DNA of 51,978 nucleotides from Catajapyx aquilonaris. Taxonomy: Eukaryota. Shown piece after piece: positions 2,096-22,300 of this stretch. Under the pieces are notes generated by a model, which saw only the letters and a list, made by a program, of their open reading frames with translations, was not told where the DNA came from and did not search any database. The number at the start of each line of letters is the position of its first letter. Positions within the stretch are counted from its first letter, which is position 1. The translations under genes and the position numbers were made by a program. Location: contig KZ538174.1 in assembly GCA_000934665.2 (NCBI GenBank), positions 62,001 to 113,978 of the forward strand, given 5' to 3'.

Positions 2096-3067
2096 TTAGC
2101 ACATGTGGTAATTTTTAAACCAAGATTTTATCTGTGCTTCACTCAGCCAGAGCTGTTTGCAAAGCTTTCTACATTGGATATCTGTAAGATATACACTTTC
2201 TGAAAGTGATCTCTTCAAGACCTGTAATTGCTTTTCAATGTAGGCAATCCAGATTCCGCTATTCTTGTCCCTCTTGACTCTGTCAGTAGTATAATCAAAA
2301 TTATATCTACTACATTTCCTGCCAGAAGAACTGACTCTCTCCACACAACTTCTGGCTGTACTACATAGGTTATGCTTTTCAGGGCTTTCAGTTCCCTTCA
2401 AGTCAGAAATCAGCTCAGCTGCCTTTGACTTTTGACTTGTTACTGGTTTGGGTTTTTCTTCTCTGCAATTTTCAAACCACATTTTTACCTGCTTCTCAGG
2501 TAAGTGCAGTGGCTGAGCTTCAGGCTTCATGAAACATGCCTCAGCATTACTCATTCCCCCACAAAATTCACTTTCATGCATGTCACAATCAACTATGGCC
2601 ACATTCACTGATTGACCAATTTCATTTTTACTCTTGTACAAGGTGAATAAACCACCAGCATTAGCTCTTGCTACATTTTGTGATTCTACAGAAGATGGAA
2701 GTAAGGGTGGCATATTTGTCACATCATGTTTAGTGACATTGTGTATGTCAATGCCCAACATCGCTGCCAAATCAACCACTTGCTGGACTTCTTCACCATT
2801 GCTGGCCCACACCTTCCCAATGTACACCAAGGTCAATACTTTTTGCATGGTTGTCTGCATGATATCAGGTAAGACTATGTTACCTGCCCATCCTACATGT
2901 GAACTCTTAAGTAGCGTTCTGAGAAAAGTGCTTGCAGAAGCTAGAATTAAACGATGCACTCTCAGTTGTCCATCAGAACAAGTAATGGTGACATCCAGGC
3001 AGGACTGATCATGCCACAATTCCAGCAATGCATCAGGAAGAAAGAAATTAATTGTAGGGAATTCCAT
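2096..3067 (-). CDS. BTB/POZ-domain protein with C-terminal degenerate homeodomain(s); single coding exon, 323 aa
   Basis: First ATG at 3067, just after a splice acceptor (tttctttcag, exon starts at 3089). The N-terminus DVTITCSDGQLRVHRLILASASTFLRTLL...IVLPDI...LVYIG...LAAMLGI is BTB-like. The C-terminus AYIEKQLQVLKRSLSESVYLTDIQCRKLCKQLWLSEAQIKSWFKN has homeodomain spacing. A second helix-3 motif, LHLPEKQVKMWFENCR, lies internally. Confidence 0.8.
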   Translation of the reverse strand: MEFPTINFFLPDALLELWHDQSCLDVTITCSDGQLRVHRLILASASTFLRTLLKSSHVGWAGNIVLPDIMQTTMQKVLTLVYIGKVWASNGEEVQQVVDLAAMLGIDIHNVTKHDVTNMPPLLPSSVESQNVARANAGGLFTLYKSKNEIGQSVNVAIVDCDMHESEFCGGMSNAEACFMKPEAQPLHLPEKQVKMWFENCREEKPKPVTSQKSKAAELISDLKGTESPEKHNLCSTARSCVERVSSSGRKCSRYNFDYTTDRVKRDKNSGIWIAYIEKQLQVLKRSLSESVYLTDIQCRKLCKQLWLSEAQIKSWFKNYHMC

Positions 3068-3361
3068 TGTCACCCAGGGACCTCACATTCTGAAAGAAAA
3101 AGGAATATTTTTTACCCACTGTACCACATTCATAATGAAATAGGCAAAACTTCACATGCAGTAGAATTCATGAATTCTAGCAGTGGCCTTCAAATATCCT
3201 GCTTTGCAAACTTTTGCTCTTGACAAACTTTGCTGGAATCCTTTAAAAAGCCCTGCACCAAATTTTTATAAACCTAATAACTGCATCCTACGAATAACTC
3301 AACTTAAAATGAATAAATTAAAAAACAGAGTTGAACAATTTAAAAATAAAAATCCAGCTCA

Positions 3362-10371: not shown

Positions 10372-13300
10372 TCATTTTGATATCTTCATAATAAATTCAA
10401 TCTTCCGTTGAATCGTCTGGAATATGTACATCAAAGATATATATACATATATTTGTGCCCTTGCATTCAACTGACATTGTACCTACCGCAGCATCCTCCT
10501 TGTTGTGAACTGATACTATTTTTCCTGAATCTGTCCCAAACAATCCAAACACTTTCTTCTGCTCTTTGGCAGAAAATAGTAATCCTTTATCAATGAGGCT
10601 TGGAGGCTCTGACAATTCTGCCCAAGTGTAGCGCCATTGAACCTGTTAACAGATGGTTTGTTAGGAAGATGTAGCTGGTATCAGTGACATCTCTCAGTAT
10701 GCAGCCAATACTCACCTGCCACTGACCAAATAGATCACTCCGTTCAAGGTAAAAGACGCGCTTGTCAGATATGAGCAACGCTGTTTTGTTATCTGCAGAG
10801 AGCATAATGTGTTCAACGTACTGGTCTGTAGAGGCAAAGCGACCTTTCTCCATATCCTGTAAGATCAGCATTGGTAAGAAACAGTAGCAGTAACTATCTG
10901 TGCCCATACGCACCCGTAATATTTTCCAACCGACAGCTTCATGTGCACGATATGGCAGCACCAACCCATCCTGTTGTATTAGACGAGGGAGTCGTTGGCG
11001 CCTTGTCTCATCTCCCACTTCAGCAGCCCTATTAACAATCAGGTAGTAATGCTAATGGAACAGATGATCCTATCATGGCATACCTTTTGACAGCATCAAG
11101 TGAGCCACTGGCAAAATCAATAACTCCAGCAGTAGGTCTCGTAACCAAACCCATAACTCCTTTCCCAACACCCTTGAAAAATCCCTCCACGCCTTCTTCT
11201 CGTGCTCCGGATATTGGCTTCATGATTACTCCAGACACACCATCAAAAACTCCCTGCATAGAGTCCAAGTTTTACATTACACACAGCCAAATGGCATGAG
11301 ACCATGTTACACTTACCATAACAAGACCTTTGCCACTCTGCGCTAGTCCAGATCCTAGATCAGCTGGGCGCTGGTTCAAAGCCTGTCTTCTCTTACGCTG
11401 GTAATCCTCATCCATGCTTAGAGCAGCTATACCCTTGCCCAGAGTCCCTGTGATTCGGGAAACTGCTCCAGCTGCTCCACCTACAGTGTGTCCTAGTAAA
11501 CTTCTCATACCCAGAGCCAGACCTTCCGCAAATTCTCCTGGCCCTTGAATTGCTCCCTGTGAAAAACCATGATTTTCATCTTGCATCCATATTGCCTCTC
11601 AAGTGTTCCTCACCTGAAACGGCTCGTAGAATAAATCTTCTACTCCTTGAGTGATCCCCAAAACCAGGCTGAAGGGATTTCCAATTACATCCAAACCCAG
11701 GACCAGGACATACAGCTGCTTGATGGCTTGGCCCGTGTAGTGAATAGTGGCTTGCTGTATCAACTGCTGGTTGGTTATGAAGGTATGCTCACGCTCAAAA
11801 TAAGCCAACCTGTTTGAAAGACACTGGTAATGTCGCAGCAAATGGCATTTCAGGCATTATACAAACCTGAACACAACATCCTGTATCTCTGTGACAGTGA
11901 CACCAACACTCTGCAGAAGCAGGTTGAGGAAGTTCGTGTGTAATTGAGCAGGCCCTGATCCTTTAGTCCCACTACCACCACCCATGGAGAAGCTCACATG
12001 AACCTGTAAATGACCAATACGTAAGGCACATGCAAGCAAAAACAAAAAGCGAGTCAGCTCACCTTGAGTGGAGAGAAATGTAATAGGTCAAAGAAGTTCT
12101 TCTGATCCTGTGTGCTTTGAAGAACCACATGATGCATGAGAGGTGCATCAACTAATTCCAAATCCTTTTTGAACAACTTTTCCTGCAAACCACAACGTAG
12201 TTTTCCAGTCCTGCCTCCAGAATTTTAATTCCTCCACTCACATTAATTGAATCCTTCTCCTCCTGTGCAAACATCTCCAGAAGAGCGTTGATAATTCCTT
12301 GATCCACTTTGACATGAAACTCTTGAATCAGTACTTTAAAATACTTAAACTGCTGGATGGTGCTGTGCTGCGTAATCCTCTGCATTATGCTCACTTCGGT
12401 GAAGGGTTTGTGAGCTGCAAATGTTGTCATTTTAAGTACCTTAGGATAGTTTCACTGTCTTGGGTACTTACCACTATCAGCGGCAACACTCTTTGGTAAT
12501 GGAACTGGTGCAAACATGATGGGAAAAACGCAATCTGGAAGTTGATTGTCAATTTGGATGCGATTGATTTTAGCATGAATTTGAATCTGATGTGGAGAAG
12601 TTTTGTACTGCAGCCACAACCCAGTTTGAAAACTCCGACGCAGACGGCGTTTCTGTGGCTTCAACATTGTCCCCAAGGCAAAGTCGACCTATACGAGACA
12701 GTTGCTTAGTTGTCGAACTTTACGTACAATACCCTGTTAATTACCTCAAGCTTTGGATCAAGATGAATTGGCATCTGGGTTTCTTTGCCTACACGCAATT
12801 CACCCAGATAAATCTGATATGCAGTCTCAATTGCGAAACAGTCTTTCATGCTCAAAGCCTTGTAGCGTTTTCCCGCCTTTTTTGCAGTTTCCCAAATGAC
12901 TCCAGAGCTGAAATAAGGTCAGTCAGCAGTCATGGTAACATAACACAAGCTATAGCTTACCTTGTAATCCCCAAGTATAGAAGTTCTGTCTGTGCAATGT
13001 TGTTTATCAAGGAGAGACCAACACCATGCAATGATATTGTGATTTCCTGGTCCATTCTCTCCCATTCACCTGAGTTTTCTGCTCCAGATGCTTGGGCAAA
13101 ATAGTTGGTGAACATCAGGGTACGCTGCATCCCATCCAGAAATGACACCCAGAAAATACTGCTTTTGCTGTGGGGTACTTCACCAATGCCGTCCTTAACT
13201 AAGGTGTCGGTATGTGAACCTTTGTCACATTTCCAGGTTAGAGTACACGGGCCAGTGGGATTTTCCCATGCAAACAATCGAACTTGTTGGGGTTGTAGAC

Positions 13301-16300
13301 ATCTGCAAGAAGTTATAGTTAATCCTGGACATACTATTCATTTTGCTAGTACTTACATTACTTCATCAGCTCCCTTTTCAGTAAACTCAACTGGCACATC
13401 ACTGTGATTAATCAACCTTGCTGGAGAAAGTCCTGGACGGTATGTGTCAAGGGTAACATATACTGAAGACTCTGTCAAGTCACACTTGACGTGTAAAGCA
13501 CCATACTGGAAGAAATTAGAAATTTCAGTTCTGAACTCTTTGGCAAATTGCGTAAGATGATGCATAATTCTTAAGTGAGGCTTTCTTGTAACAAATTCAA
13601 GTTATATTCAACACTTGAACAAGTGAAAGTCTCAACTGCACCTGACTTGGATCTTTACTACCTTATCTGCCTACACGGATAATTATTGTACTGCACTCTG
13701 TCAATTAACTCTATCACACAAATCAACATTTCAATTTAATTAAAATCATAGGTCACATTGTCCAATTACTGGTCAAGTAAAAATCCCACTTGGTGAGAGA
13801 TGCCACAAGCGGCCAACTACAGTTTCTACCTGCTGCCTATGGTCCATTTCACCTGTTCGCAAATGATACTAATTATATTACTGGTGTGCATGGGAAGAAG
13901 AAAAAAAACTTGCCAAGAGGCTGTATTGTCCACAACAGAGTTAAGTTCTTTGCTCAGCACTGTATCATGATGTATTATAAAAGTCCTTTCCCATAAACAT
14001 GTCCCCTGCTTTTCGATCATTAGGAATGAGGTGCAAAAGTGCATTCCTGATAATTAAAGTTGTCATTACCTTGCATAATCTATTACTTTACAGGCTGATC
14101 CAAACTTTCTGTGCTTTCAGTTAGCCATTTCTTGGTACCAAACCACTCATTTTTATGCAGTTACTTTGTGGGGATTTTAAGATGCCATTATTAGCTAAAT
14201 GGAAGCATCTTTTCCATGTCCTGAGGTTTAATGGCTAATTGAAATGACAATGAGTTTGGGATACCCTATATTCAGCCATGAAATAGTGTTGCAAAAAAAA
14301 GGCCCCAGTAAGAAACATCTCTCAGGAATTCAATCAATTTTTTCTGAAATATATATCCCCCATTATGGAGGGTGATTCCAAATCTGTCACAAACTTCCAG
14401 GTCATGTTCCTAGGTACTAGAACTAGAGGATCATTTTATGTATAGAAGTTATTTGGTGAGTGTTGCTTTGCTACATAGAGAATGAGCTCAAATGCCCAAT
14501 GCAGAATATCCCGGTAGTGACACAAGAACCTGACTTAGTTATAAAATGTGTCTGTTATCATATAGTTTAAATTTACATTGGGACTATTACATGTAGAGGT
14601 CAGTCATCAAGAAAATGAAATGTTGAAGGCAAGCTCTGAAAAGAAAGACATGGTATGCACTATTTATTAATTAAGGCTAATTATCTTGATAATAATTTGA
14701 GGGGATACCTCTACATATAATGATCACCTAATATCCAGAAATTCACCTCAAAAGTGCCACAGAGGTTTGAAATGAAAATGTCCACATGATATAATTACTT
14801 TTGGAGAGTAACCCTGATGCATAATAAGAATTTCCTGTGCAGCACCCACAAATTACAATGCTTGCAAAAAGCAAAGGCATCACAAATTTGTTAGTTATTG
14901 GATGTCTCAGTTAAAATTGGAGTTATTATAAGGTTTGGAGAGATTATCATTTTCCTTCAAATGCAAGTTATCATTCTACTGCATGTCCCTTGCAGCAATC
15001 AATCTAACCTTGTTGTCCATTTTCAGCAAACTAGTATGCTCTTTGGTGAGAGAAAATGGGCTGGATTTCTCCTGAGTGCCTGGAATAGTAGCCACCAACT
15101 CCAGGTTGTTGGAATTCTTGGGCCAAAATGGAACACATTCTTTTGTTGGAATTGTGACCCAGGCAGAACTTCCATTCTTCTCTTGCACTTGTATGTCAAA
15201 TGGTGAGTTGTTTACAAGGATATGACGTGGAGTGAAGGTGATGAGCTTGGTAAGACTGATGTGGCTCAGCTTGATCTCAACTCCAACCTAAACATACAAA
15301 AAGGACATGGTTAACGTAGCATTAACTTACGACTTATTAAAAGTGAAGCTAGACTGACCTGAAATTGCATGCCAGCAGCCTTACATGTCACCAAACCAGA
15401 GCTTCCAGCCACATCCAATGAGAACTTGTCAGACCATTCACTGTCACCTATCTTGATTACTGCCTTCTTCTTGCCAAAGAAGGCCTTCCCACGGAAGGAG
15501 AACATGATTGGCCCACTATGGCCCAACTCGTGGGTGACAACGTTGGAAGGATCATCAGCCTGACAAGAAATTACATTGTTCAGAAACGTCTAGACTAAGC
15601 TAGTCCTAAAATGCAACAAAATGCAATGCACGGCACAGGAATCCTAGCACTACCCACCACCACCTGTTAATAGAATCAATGCAGTCATCCTGATACACTC
15701 GGTTGGTACCTTTGCAAAAGTGAATCATGGCAAATATGAGTTGCAGGGACAGGTGGAAAAGAAATGATACATGCGAAGGTATCTGTCAATGTGAGTCAGA
15801 TCAATCCACCATGGTTAGGGTAGAAGTTAATTGAGTTGCGTCACCTGACAGTTATATTAACTCACCTGTTCAGAATGTTTGGAACCAAGAGGAAAGCTGC
15901 AGACCCAAGACTGCAAGTAAATGATAAATGAAATCCAGAGCAATGTGTTGTCTACTGTTACTTTTTTATCCATAGGTTTAGAATGTGAGTCTCATGATCC
16001 GTGTCATTCCCAGAGAGTGAACCATGCATGTCACACTGACACATGCCAAATAGTGCAGGTGCAATTGGTAATTATCAGTAGAGTCTGGATTGTCATTTTT
16101 TCCCAACCGAATGGTGTGCCACATAAAACTTGCAAGTACTACTTGAAACATGTGCCTTTCCATTGATTAGCAAACAGTCATCAAGAAAAATTACGATGTG
16201 ATGGTAATCAACAATTCTACCAGGTGAAACCAAACTATTATTTGGTGATATGTTATTCCAACAATTAGTGATCTCAACTTTACTTCCACAACTGCACTTC

Positions 16301-19300
16301 ACAAACGTGAAGGTGGAAATGTGATACCTGTGAAACATCTCCATTTTCGGTTTTTGTCCCTTTGCCGTGCTTCTGTAAAGGGGCAACAAAAGAGAGCAAA
16401 AATGAGATGAGCATGCAGTATCAAATAAGCTCACGCCAGTTTGGAAGATCTGGGGCGCTGTATAAAGTAGACATATGCCATTAGAGAAGCTACAACAATT
16501 TGCAGCTCCTGCGAGTGACTTGATACATGACAGTACAATACATGACAGTATCAAATGTAACTTTCAAACAACAAGTGAAGGTAGAGAAAAGGGTTTCATT
16601 GGTTCTGCAAAGGAAAGGACCAAGGCAGAGGATAGTCACCTGGTATGGTTGGGTAATCAAACGGGTAAAGAGAAATTCCATGCAGTTGAAGGCCTTGCCT
16701 TGGCGCTGGAAAGGAGGTAGGCAAGGGATTTTAAAATTTGGAAGGAAGAAGGAATCTAAGTGAATGGTATGGAAAAAAATCACTCTGTAGATAACTATGA
16801 TTGATGTTGATAATAATCCAAGTACTCACTCGATATGTCAGTGTCATACCAGTCTTGTTCACCATCCAGAATGGGCTGTACAATGACATGGTATGAGTGC
16901 CTTCAAACTGAGTGCTGTGCATACCCAAATCCATGTAAATTTTATTGGAGTCTGTTGATTCAAATGTCCAGATATTCAGCTCCTGTACTGGCACTTGTAC
17001 TGGTGCTGTGCAAACCCAATTCTTCCCCAAGTACTCCTTTATCTGCAATCGAAACATGGCTTTACCACAAGCCCACAACAACAAATCTCTAACATGACTC
17101 ACCACTACAGTGAGCTGTGAACTGGTCAAATCAGCATTAGTGATGTGGACTTGGGTTCCAGATGGCACCTCTGTTCCATCTTGACTACCGTGCAGACTGT
17201 AGCATACTGGCACTGGCAGGTGACTTGTGAAAACCAGTGTAGGACGCAGGTGGATATTAAAGCAAGTGCTCACCATAGTACGCCTCTGCGAGTTCTCAAA
17301 AAACATTTGGTCTACCTCTCCGACAGCCTAAATACATTACAGCAGTTGAGTTATACTAGGTCAATCACTACAGGCAAAACCCAGAACATACATTGATGTA
17401 GAATGGTTCTCCTCCACTAGCAGACCGTGAGTTGCATTGCAACAAGGAGTGGGTGGTGATGTCCTTCAGGAGACTTTTCCATGCTACTGGACTCACTGAG
17501 AGAGTATATCTGCAACAAAGAAGGTTTGAAAAGTTATTCAAATTTTGTACCTTTCACCTAACCACTTACCCTGTGACACCAAAAAATAACTCGCTGGTAG
17601 GTGTGTAGATAGCATGCATTGGTAGGTTCAAGTATTTCTCCGGTTCGATGGTGCCTATACAAACCACCTCATTTCCTCGTTTGCTCATGTAATATGCATC
17701 CACTGACACATGAAAGTGATTGTAAATCTAGAACAAAGTTGCAAGTGTGACCATGTTTTCATCTCAGCCCGAGCTTTAACTCACCTTAATTATGCTACGC
17801 AAATTGATGATTTTGCATCCCTCCACCACACTAATATCGGACACAAGGGCATAATGATCTCCCTTCTCTGTGCGCTTGGGCAATGGAAAGTAACGCTTGT
17901 CTGCACGAGCCACGGGGATGTCTCGAGCATACTGAAGATCAGGAAGAAATATTGCCAAATTTGTTTCCTTCACTTCATCTTGCTCCTCCAGTAGAGATGC
18001 TCCCTTCTTTGAAAACCGCGAGACTTTCTCATCTTTCAAAACCAATGGCGTTTGGGTGCCTGGTTCCAACATGACTTCATTGTATTCTTCTTGACCACTG
18101 ACCTATGACAGGAAAATAGGTTGCATTAAAATCCAAGTCTTGTGGCACAAAATGGGAGCCATATGCCATTGAAAAGGAGGTCTGTGCTTATGCTGAAGTT
18201 CCCTACTGAAGAACAAGTGCAAATATGACTGGCTCTGACTGCATCTACTTATTTCATTACCTCCTTGCTGGAACAGAACTTCCACACACTCATGTCCACA
18301 AAACCCACACCCTCAGACCTTAGGCCTGGTTGCACCATTCACAGGATCAATCTCAGCAGGATTCAACAAACATGGTTTAGTGTTGGCAAGAATATTTATA
18401 TACTCGACCAATAGCAGCAGGTAAATGTGAGTAGATCTGCATGGGTTGATGCACCCCCCGGACACCCCCTGCCACTTTGTGTGAGCTTAGAGGTCCTGCC
18501 CCACCAAGGGGATTTGCCACAGGCGGCGCTGGGATCACGAACCTAGATAGGTTCGACGCACTAGAGAGGAAATTGTGAACCATATGGGTCGACTCCGATA
18601 GGCTGGGGTAGTTAAGGGCTCCCAAACTACCCCAGCTAATCGGAGTAAAACTAAGAGCTTCAGAATTTCCCGCTAGTAGCGGCGCACCTATCTAGGTTCT
18701 TGATCCCAGCGCCGCCCGTGGCAAACCCCCTTGGTGGGGGAGGACCACTAAGCTCACAGGGGGAGCAATGTATAAGGTATTCGAGTGTCCAGGGGGTGGG
18801 TTGATGCAACCCATCCTAAAGGTTCAAGTTTCTTTCCAGGAAAGTAGCAATGATTCTTTTGTTATCCAACTGACCTAAAATACTACAGTGAAACCTGCCC
18901 ATAACAGACCCTGGGTATAGCGGAAACCTGTCAATTGCGGAATTTTTTCCGGGAACGGGCACATGCATAGGGAATGCAATGTATTTTTGACGGATATAAT
19001 GGAACCTGCCCAATGTGGAAACGGAAGGCATTTTTGTCTCCCTTCAAAGAAAATCCCTGTTCATAACAGAAATCAAAAGGCTCACATTATCTCCTACGGG
19101 TTACAAAAATAGAAACTACAGCTGAGTTCCCATCAGCCTTCCCAGGCCCCTTTTTGGACCGCCCATGTCCGTGTGTCTCATAATTGCTGGAATAATTGCT
19201 TCCGTCCCGTGGCCTTGTTGATAAAGGGTGAGGAATGGGCCTATTTTTGGTTGGGATACTCGAAAAACTGCTTGTGGGACGGGTCAAGAAGATGTGACTC

Positions 19301-22300
19301 ATGTGATACGTAGATGCCTTTTAGTTCACTGTTCAGTCCAGTTTTAAAATGTCGGGGAAGAGGAAGGGGATTGACACGGGTTCAACATATTGCCCGAGTC
19401 CGGACTGGTGGTCCAATGGAGCAAGCAAAATTACGATTTTGCACCATATTGAGGTAAGGTGCTTATTTTTGTTCTCCCCATTATCCTCTCTTTCTCGCGG
19501 GCAAAAAAAAAATTAGTAAAGTCCTTGATCTGGTTATAGTGGAAAACTGTCCATAACCGAAAATTTTTGAGGTCCCGTGCGATTCCGCTGTACACAGGTT
19601 TCACTGTATAAGCTGTAGGTCCATTTCATTTACTATTTCAAATTACTTGCCAATTGTCAAACTTGTACCATTTTAACAATGGGCTTGATGATACTTTTGA
19701 CAACCACACTACACATTTCACTTTATGACAGGAAACTTTGCCAAACAGTTAGTGCTGCTGAAAACACAAAACTCTTTTGGGTACAAGGTAAGCATCAAGC
19801 GTGATTATATATCACATGTTGTGATGCTGTTGTGCATGCAAGAAAATATTTCCTTATATTTTACCTAAATAATGCACGTCCATACTGTTAGTTTTTAAGA
19901 TGGATTTATACCTCTGACATAAGGGCTGCATCATGGCCATAAGGTGGCATATCTGACTGTAAGTTTATGTCCACTATTCTTTTTCTTTAATTCTAACTAT
20001 ATCATGTGTTTCAGAATTTAACCTACATACGTATTGGGTAAAATTTTGTGGACACTAGCCTCAGTCGCCTTGCCTTAAAAGTTATTAAAAGTTATGGAGA
20101 CCACTGGAAACCCCTTTAATATACATGGTGGTTCCAAGTATTCATGTTGCTTTAGTTATAGGAAATTTTGCTCGAGGCTGTTATTTTTTTAAATTAGTTG
20201 CGCCCCAATCCAGTTGCCCTATTATATAGAAACTCCTATATTCAACCATCTGGGAATAATTGGGCATCTGGATCTTGGCACAACAGGGTACACAAAAATA
20301 ACTACCGTACTTCAGATGATATTAGCCATAACTAAAACTGACCCTGATACTTGGAACACCCTGTATATAACTATAAAACCCATGAAGACACTTGCAGGTG
20401 AGGAAACATGAGCAAGTGGAAATAAGAATCCCTAGGATTTTCACCAATACATAAAGATAAGAGCTCAGTTCGGAAACACGTGGTATGTAATATAGAGAGC
20501 TGTTGTGTATACAGTATTGCATAAATGTATGTGGAACATTAGCAGTCACATACACTGTCTGTTATTTGGTCCTGAGTGGTGTCTCTGCCTAGGAGATCAC
20601 AGCAACAGTGAAATTATTTGACTAATACAAGCCAAAATTGTAGGAGTGAGAAATGTTGAGAGACCAACAGGTAATGAGAGCCAATAAGATACATTTGTAT
20701 GCCCACATTACACCCTTTTGTATAGAGACCAGCAAGCAATTTTTTTGGCATACTTGCATGGTCACTTGTTATAGAAGTTATTATAATTATATAATTTTAA
20801 CAGTTTGAGTTATTTACTGCACTAACTAGCATTTTTTCTGCTCTTATCGCCAGGTGAAGACCATTTAGCCCTAAATATTCAAACAGAGCCAGCAAGCCAG
20901 GATTTTCTGTTTTCATTAGCCTGTACATATATGCAAGACAAATCTTTGCCTTCGATTATCTTGTAATTGGTTATTTGGCCTTGATGAATTTCACTTGTAT
21001 GCCCAGGATATATAATATCTCCTTAGTTGACACAGCATACGTTATGACAAATGACGTCTTCTGAACTATAATCTGACTATAATCTATATTGGGTCATATG
21101 CAGCACTTTGTCATTGTAAGAACAACCCATCTGTGGTATACCCATCACAACACTTCAGTTCCTAAAATCACACTAGTGCAAGATTAGTGGCACTGTGTAC
21201 AGAAAAAGGCCTGCACCTTTACCTTTGCTGCCTTCTCTGAGCCCTTCATTTTCTGCAAGAGATTAAATGTCACTACAGAACTCCTCAGAACAATCAGCCT
21301 ATCCATTTCCTATGCACTTATCTAGTACCTTCAAAGGCATGAGGAACATGACAAACATGACATTGATAACAATCATTAATACATGCACACTACGGATATA
21401 TGTTGAGAATCGTGTTCTGAAATATTTCAGGAAATGATATGTGCTCTTTGAAAAATCCAGACTGATAACAAAATATCAGAAAGTGTCTGAGGACAATTGA
21501 AACTTTACAAAGCACAAAAAAACTACATGCAGAGTAGAAGCACAGCTGTATTGTCTCAGCCAAAATTTGTGGGTTGTCGAGTCATTCAAATATCACCTAC
21601 TTGGAAAGCACTGTCTTTTAGTTGCAAAACAACAGTTGTCCCAGTATCATTTAGCACAACATATGGGCCAGCAGGTGATTCTCGTTTTGTAGATTTGGGC
21701 TTCACGGCTTCTTCAAATGATTCACCAAGAGAAGTTAACACTTCCAGAAAGGTTTTTGTCACTGTCAGGTCCAATGTTTCCTGTTGGAAATAAAAAGAGG
21801 ACCATAAACATGCAGCAGCAATTCCTGATGCTAAATTGTAAAAGAGTATTGTCCAAATGAAATACATAATAATCTACCCAAATCAGTGATAATGCCCAGT
21901 CTTGTACAAAACTACGTTAATGCAACCAATCCTATACACTCTAGTATATTATGCCCTTAAACAGAGGTCTCAAACATGCGGTCCGCGGGCAACTCAATTG
22001 CGGACCCACTGTCCTATCTCATGTTTTTGGCCATTATCAACATGTTTAGCAATTTGACAATGGACAATGAACAAATACCTTTACTTGATGTCTTTATACA
22101 GTACCTAGGTATTTATGGCTCTGCCATGAGTTCAGTGGGGAAGTCTGGGAAAATATTTCTTCTGAAAATGTCAGGTGAAGTACTTTGTCAGTTACACTGA
22201 CCTAAGATTGTGTGACCTTGAACACAAAAAATTTCACCTGCGGCTGGCTCTACTTGTTCTCTTCCCAGTTATTGTTTGCTTACCGTATTTACGCACATTT

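Follow-up and report, generated by a model that had tools for sequence, protein, structure and literature searches.

As lipid bridges, proteins of the VPS13A/C type pass lipid between organelles, and what activates these bridges and directs them to their targets is not settled. In the genome of Catajapyx aquilonaris, a stretch of 51,978 nucleotides (nt) (assembly GCA_000934665.2, contig KZ538174.1, positions 62,001 to 113,978), hereafter called the window, carries on its minus strand a VPS13 gene in which one long intron holds three small exon-like units, designated here E1, E2 and E3. The question raised by this locus is whether these units are genuine optional exons and, if so, at which place in the bridge, and to what effect, the encoded peptides are inserted. 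As detailed below, the exons are an old, frame-preserving cassette module residing in one intron of the arthropod VPS13A/C-type gene, the splicing of which is shown in relatives to be combinatorial with respect to two exon classes, namely a basic exon (A) and a second exon (B).

The host intron and its exons

The 3' part of the host gene was modelled as 20 exons encoding 1,278 stop-free amino acids (aa), one acceptor being corrected from RNA, and the protein exhibits 55% identity to Periplaneta Vps13 across 1,280 aa. In a quick tree, the window gene is pancrustacean and falls outside winged insects, its order relative to lobster not being separated, which would suit a wingless hexapod. Besides this orthology to arthropod Vps13, the intron is sited in the fourth Asn-containing module of the VAB. 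The upstream constitutive exon (16830..17042, minus strand), delimited by the RNA joints 17042/17103 and 16830/15910, ends in beta1-beta2 of VAB repeat 4 with a phase-0 donor, while the downstream constitutive exon (15359..15559, minus strand), supported by RNA and gene model, encodes the remainder of this repeat. A homolog search with the upstream exon gave no match among the proteins of 126-2000 aa searched. A prior reading of the DNA letters alone (the sequence-only reading) had placed a phase-0 intron of 1.27 kb in the VAB region, and this proved correct: the host intron (15560..16829, minus strand) is in phase 0 and 1270 nt long, as against 53-73 nt for 17 of the 19 modelled introns of the gene, and the insertion site lies within the Pfam VAB domain PF25036. 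The intron is single copy, its sole genome match being itself (in a search ignoring very common words); a repeat search within it returned only short chance families of two or three copies, with no exon duplication and no docking array, and an Rfam scan of 15400-17000 gave 0 matches. In this same genome, a VPS13 paralog (L025:1438-1494, G000:C141) exhibits a 57-nt phase-0 intron at the same repeat-4 codon; the intron is thus old and its position predates the paralog split, and since the paralog intron is still 57 nt long, the expansion is specific to the cassette-bearing gene.

The three units lie on the minus strand exactly where they had been read and encode the peptides then given; each is flanked by AG and GT, in phase 0-0, stop-free and a multiple of three nt in length (66, 45 and 45 nt), namely (i) E1 (16640..16705), a probable cassette judging from its splice signals, encoding 22 aa with one Cys, a net charge of +2 and an amphipathic stretch, (ii) E2 (16328..16372), which by homology corresponds to the basic exon A of arthropods (K-x-x-K-x-x-K-x-E pattern), and (iii) E3 (15866..15910), joined in RNA and likely the ortholog of a Trp/Ser-rich exon B. 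Good splice sites had been ascribed to all of them. With 15-18 pyrimidines in 20 and AG-free zones of 39-55 nt, the three do pass a strict filter (at least 15 pyrimidines in 20, an AG-free zone of at least 30 nt and a donor score of at least 2.5, all cut-offs chosen after the exons were seen), E1 having the strongest acceptor side (18 of 20 pyrimidines, AG-free zone of 48 nt) and a donor of 7.7, but the donor of E2 is weak, i.e., 2.5 vs 5.8-12.0 at constitutive donors. Under this filter, 3 open units of 3n length were found in the 1.27 kb of the host intron vs 0 in the 26.3 kb of the other VPS13 introns, where 3 units appear when any frame is allowed; E1, E2 and E3 exceed chance expectation, under cut-offs set after the fact. 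A position weight matrix trained on the short introns of the gene singled out E3 only; built from 19-20 of the gene's own splice sites, it under-scored the acceptors of E1 and E2, failed to pick up the genuine A and B exons at the locus L002 (see below), and was therefore replaced by pyrimidine and AG-zone counts.

The RNA evidence in this species corresponds to one run, as contigs over 12400-17400, and contigs lose rare forms. Three RNA contigs, each at least 99% alike to the window, display six canonical constitutive joints, from which it follows that the run contains spliced transcripts of the VPS13 gene. In a seventh joint, the upstream donor 16830 is connected with the E3 acceptor 15910 (CT..AC on the plus strand), in a contig of depth 8.2 reaching 30 nt within E3, i.e., the E3 acceptor is used in an isoform omitting E1, E2 and a 23-nt piece also put forward as an exon. 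As such, a junction check of the sort the sequence-only reading had called for gave an inclusion joint for E3 and none for E1, E2 or the 23-nt piece; in this run E1 and E2 were seen only skipped and E3 only included, both states occurring in orthologs. The lack of RNA cover over E1 and E2 in one run does not amount to evidence of absence. Another contig (15881-16197, depth 2.9) is unspliced. Of note, the deepest contig starts 22 nt within the intron (15560-15581), probably as an unspliced tip, but a minor acceptor before the downstream exon is conceivable at 15590, where an in-frame AG is found.

As real cassette exons, E3 is upheld by RNA and by likeness to relatives and E2 by homology, while E1 finds support in neither. 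E1 is nonetheless somewhat more likely than not to be real and lineage-specific. Its composition (Cys, net +2, hydrophobic moment 0.59) resembles that of a mosquito second exon, but homology of E1 to the Cys-bearing inserts of mosquitoes, moths, beetles, bees and spiders was considered and rejected, none scoring better than 14% of the background, and no match above background was obtained against 11 known second-exon peptides. Besides, E1 sits upstream of A, and every second exon with a visible order lies downstream of A. The sequence of the 23-nt candidate (16435..16457, minus strand) is present as described but not a multiple of three; its inclusion, alone or with E2 or E3, leads to a premature stop in the next exon, it is skipped in the RNA contig, and no matching insert was found among the relatives examined. 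As a real exon it is unsupported and, being frameshifting, conceivable at most as a poison exon.

Inserts at the same codon in relatives

In relatives, VPS13 proteins exhibit optional inserts at exactly the same codon. Among 148 proteins examined, 136 have both anchors, 36 of them without and 100 with an insert, a split that is no frequency since the query itself carried the insert. Among all 477 proteins collected, 320 have both anchors and 143 begin with the basic insert (class A), the hosts being moths, beetles, Hymenoptera, mosquitoes, bugs, Orthoptera, cockroach, stick insects, an amphipod, orb spiders and a scorpion. Scored against 24 class-A lineage representatives, E2 comes first among the 2963 AG-anchored peptides without a stop that the two strands of the window yield. 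Compared with three B inserts (Timema, Periplaneta and Homarus), E3 ranks third of the 2963, and first on the sense strand, this three-member set having been picked after the likeness to E3 was noticed. The conservation among arthropods that had been suggested as a check is consequently strong for E2, moderate for E3 and nil for E1. Exon A retains its N-terminal pattern between taxa as distant as scorpion and locust. Of the 24 class-A representatives, 10 end in S/T-P-x-K, a CDK-type phosphorylation motif; it is absent from E2, mosquitoes and orb spiders.

Following A, the second exon is Trp/Ser-rich in Timema, Periplaneta and Homarus; in moths, leaf beetles, mosquitoes, bees and spiders it bears Cys and is frequently basic or amphipathic. 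At least one Cys is present in 28 of 41 distinct second-exon peptides (including a few probable intron read-throughs and A variants) vs 3 of 50 A-only peptides. The expectation of basic, Cys-containing or amphipathic loops is thus borne out for VAB inserts across arthropods. In genomic DNA, the locus L002, whose protein matches Atta, carries A (42 nt) then B (66 nt), both in phase 0-0, within a 1.5-kb intron, while in three cockroach-like loci (L005, L006 and L009) B is a single exon of 102-111 nt, L009 also carrying a genomic A exon of 48 nt in phase 0-0.

Isoforms with and without inserts coexist within one species in Diabrotica, Camponotus, Battus, Homalodisca, Periplaneta, Anopheles funestus, Toxorhynchites, Lygus, Trichonephila, Argiope, Centruroides, Cimex, Tribolium and Bombus. 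All four kinds (none, A, B and A+B) are present in Anopheles funestus and three of them in Diabrotica, Periplaneta and Bombus; Argiope has four kinds with two different second exons. These isoform sets are database gene models, some of them from Logan contigs; database gene models are mostly RNA-supported. The isoforms are already in NCBI annotations, unremarked, and a literature search on VPS13/VAB splicing, with most subscription journals outside its reach, found no description of the module.

The sequence-only reading had left the choice between combinatorial and mutually exclusive splicing, and the isoforms of relatives favour the former. That one only of E1, E2 and E3 would enter each transcript is very improbable, even though E3 is the only one of the three in the single RNA contig, none of the isoforms listed for two orb spiders combines a Cys-rich with a Ser-rich second exon and a 10-nt complement of the E1 donor is present (see below), since no fewer than eight groups of arthropods (mosquito, moths, bees, ants, cockroach, stick insect, spiders and scorpion) have A+B isoforms, the spacers (267 nt between E1 and E2, 417 nt between E2 and E3) exceed the gene's minimal intron and all tried combinations keep the frame. 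Clusters of the Dscam type likewise hold several optional exons in one arthropod intron, but here the exons are mutually unrelated, not duplicates of one another, co-included in relatives and devoid of any docking/selector array; no steric, frame or RNA-structure constraint was found.

Beyond arthropods, 7 of 8 isoforms of an amphioxus hybrid (P0288-P0294) carry an optional 5-aa insert at this site, and 12 of the 15 isoforms listed for Lineus (P0414-P0427) an optional 6-aa insert; neither insert resembles A in sequence. A microexon-sized insert at the same site was also observed in another nemertean, Tubulanus (P0366). The single Strigamia and single Tachypleus models have no insert. Such unrelated short inserts in amphioxus and nemerteans, together with second exons very different among orders, a loop natively longer in fungal Vps13 and flies that seem to manage without inserts, would suit a merely tolerant loop, where the exons, although real, would have come and gone many times as almost neutral passengers of a phase-0 intron that permits insertions. 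This is improbable, however, with an exon A recognisable in both chelicerates and insects and near-identical across many moths and butterflies, and with the same intron in the paralog L025 having stayed at 57 nt, leaving no space for a cassette.

Splicing signals and known exon systems

Amid the tiny introns of this gene, the exons would be recognised by exon definition, by virtue of their long pyrimidine tracts and AG-free zones. Regarding their control, three TGCATG hexamers of the Rbfox type are present in the host intron, one upstream of E2 (16412..16417, minus strand) and one upstream of E3 (16023..16028, minus strand), as had been pointed out, and a third within E1 (16679-16684). Rbfox control of the cassettes, as then suggested, is not supported: 3 hexamers in 1.27 kb do not significantly exceed the density of 0.72 per kb observed elsewhere (p=0.066), and there is no strand bias in the cockroach-like loci (sense/antisense 8/7 in L005, 10/8 in L006 and 6/9 in L009; L002 has one site). 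A pairing scan uncovered, between E2 and E3, a stretch of 10 nt (16218..16227, minus strand) fully complementary to the 5' splice site of E1, a possible RNA-structure repressor that may be due to chance. The duplex of 16218-16227 with 16636-16645 (E1 donor) amounts to -17.4 kcal/mol, a value reached by 2 of 100 shuffles, and a weaker pairing is possible between 16210-16227 and the E3 donor; of the 12 donors tested, E1 was the sole one to stand out, which is insufficient after multiple tests.

Among known systems, the neural microexon programme of eMIC/Srrm234 (SRRM3/4) comes close by its short in-frame surface-loop exons, long AG-free zones and pyrimidine tracts, and by the weak E2 donor (features from PMC8797185); at 5-6 aa, the inserts seen in amphioxus and Lineus have the size of microexons. 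Unlike microexons, E1, E2 and E3 are longer (45-66 nt), UGC near the acceptor is not discriminating, since constitutive exons have it at least as often (15 of 20), and no strong CUAAY branch point was found near them. In mouse Vps13c, three regulated exons (MmuEX0051462, 0051463 and 0051464) are eMIC-dependent or -sensitive (table S2, PMC8797185). These are likewise short, regulated and a multiple of three nt in length, belong to an orthologous gene and include two within one intron, but by their coordinates they lie near the two gene ends and outside the VAB; in the same table, fly Vps13 appears with two constitutive exons only. With respect to the VPS13A/C lipid bridges themselves, i.e., insect Vps13 and human VPS13A and VPS13C, the host gene is orthologous and the site falls in the same VAB domain, but the solved human and fungal chains are without such a cassette and the human loop is short. 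In their available passages, the structure and adaptor papers make no mention of VAB splicing, and those of PMC8370404, bioRxiv 2024.02.28.582420 and PMC7613979 have no bearing on the insertion site.

The repeat-4 loop and the VAB arm

Alignment puts the insertion site immediately behind residue R2785 of human VPS13C and in the fourth VAB module, and the site could be aligned to 9YQP, 9YG5 and 7U8T. VAB module motifs lie about 100 aa apart, and the aligned Chaetomium Asn about 220 aa, i.e., two modules, before N2521 of repeat 6. A moth-like fragment of 359 aa that includes exon A was modelled by AlphaFold from 22 aligned sequences (mean predicted local distance difference test, pLDDT, of 73); in this model the A insert forms a low-confidence loop (pLDDT down to 58) between strands 252-256 and 277-280, and the modelled fold matches 7U8T (E 9e-14). 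The insertion point, the mapping of which on a VPS13 model had been recommended, is thus placed in the beta2-beta3 loop of VAB repeat 4; that the inserts lengthen this flexible loop and leave the fold untouched is well supported.

It had been proposed that the inserts retarget the bridge through the adaptor site of the VAB. They do lie in the VAB, but this proposal is weakened by their being in repeat 4, off the surface binding PxP adaptors, which is formed by repeats 5-6, mainly 6 (PMC8978259, 10.1101/2025.08.12.669934, PMC10053439). The inserts might still make or block a site for another adaptor, isoforms being sent to different contact sites via receptors such as Rab or sorting nexin: the VAB alone binds Rab7 (PMC13430412) and SNX5 (PMC10053439), the Rab7 surface not being mapped to a repeat in the available passages, and the constancy of the exon A N-terminal pattern is as expected of a linear motif. 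With the mapped site on other repeats and the charge pattern conserved more than the exact sequence, this is unlikely.

A slightly better than even chance is given to the reading that the exons tune the VAB arm, i.e., its membrane contact or its release from the cap. When VPS13C is soluble, its VAB forms an arch above the bridge, and loops of the autoinhibitory cap are bound to repeats 3 and 4 in a closed state (PMC13430412), whereas in VPS13A-XKR1 the VAB is swung aside, in plane and facing the membrane (bioRxiv 2026.01.07.698282); structures from 2026 propose that the arm swings from cap-bound closed to open, with triggers largely unknown. To this mobile arm the loop would add a lysine-rich patch (A), a Ser-rich patch (B in this species) or a Cys-bearing amphipathic patch (E1, and the second exon of moths, beetles, mosquitoes and spiders), the PxP adaptor site presumably not being rewritten. 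Such an extra membrane or phosphorylation handle would shift the arm between cap-bound closed and membrane-docked open positions; from the Cys enrichment in second exons, Cys loops may be candidate S-acylated anchors.

Several points weigh against this reading. Fungal VABs did not bind liposomes and have lysin-like loops at module interfaces (PMC8978259), and the repeat-4 loop, placed by alignment, might face either the cap or the membrane. The insert sequences strongly diverge between orders, and the hydrophobic moment of E1 is equalled or passed by 22% of shuffles. No insert was found in Haliotis (12 of 12 with the motif) or Asterias (9 of 9), and Drosophila Vps13 is reported (bioRxiv 2026.05.15.725286) to have two isoforms differing only in the 5' untranslated region; the module is thus dispensable in some animals. 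Inclusion would have to be tissue-regulated, the RNA here being one run, among the contigs of which no E3-to-15559, full-skip, E1 or E2 joint was listed.

A bolder version of the arm reading is rather unlikely. It holds that a splicing switch older than the spider-insect split, perhaps bilaterian-old, sets VPS13 autoinhibition and membrane anchoring through a polybasic, phosphorylatable or palmitoylated repeat-4 loop where the cap latches, giving tissue-specific 'easy-open' isoforms. Its bilaterian age would rest on the optional inserts of 5-6 aa that amphioxus and a nemertean have at this position, and the switch would have been overlooked because yeast, fly and human chains are without it.

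Elsewhere in the host gene, the 60-nt intron 17043-17102 (minus strand) is in frame and stop-free, with a second AG 6 nt downstream of the RNA-used acceptor (17042). Farther upstream, a 30-nt stop-free phase-0 exon-like unit (21223-21252, minus strand), with a good acceptor and a lysine-rich peptide, sits in a long intron that interrupts VAB repeat 1 within a comparable loop; among 34 proteins listed, none showed an isoform difference there. Apart from VPS13, the window contains an open frame of 328 codons (2099-3082, minus strand) with a BTB-like domain at its start.

The splicing mechanism itself is ordinary, but the module is ancient and located at a mechanistically interesting site of VPS13, where its function would be that of the tuned VAB arm. 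Spiders and insects split more than 500 million years ago, which gives the age of the module. Natural isoforms differing only by a repeat-4 loop of 15-37 residues would be ready-made reagents for the arm-swing model in beetle, moth, bee or mosquito cells, and the finding highlights the loop of human VPS13A and VPS13C near R2785 of VPS13C, seemingly unprobed so far. If the favoured reading is true, these optional exons may tune where or when VPS13 passes lipid between organelles.

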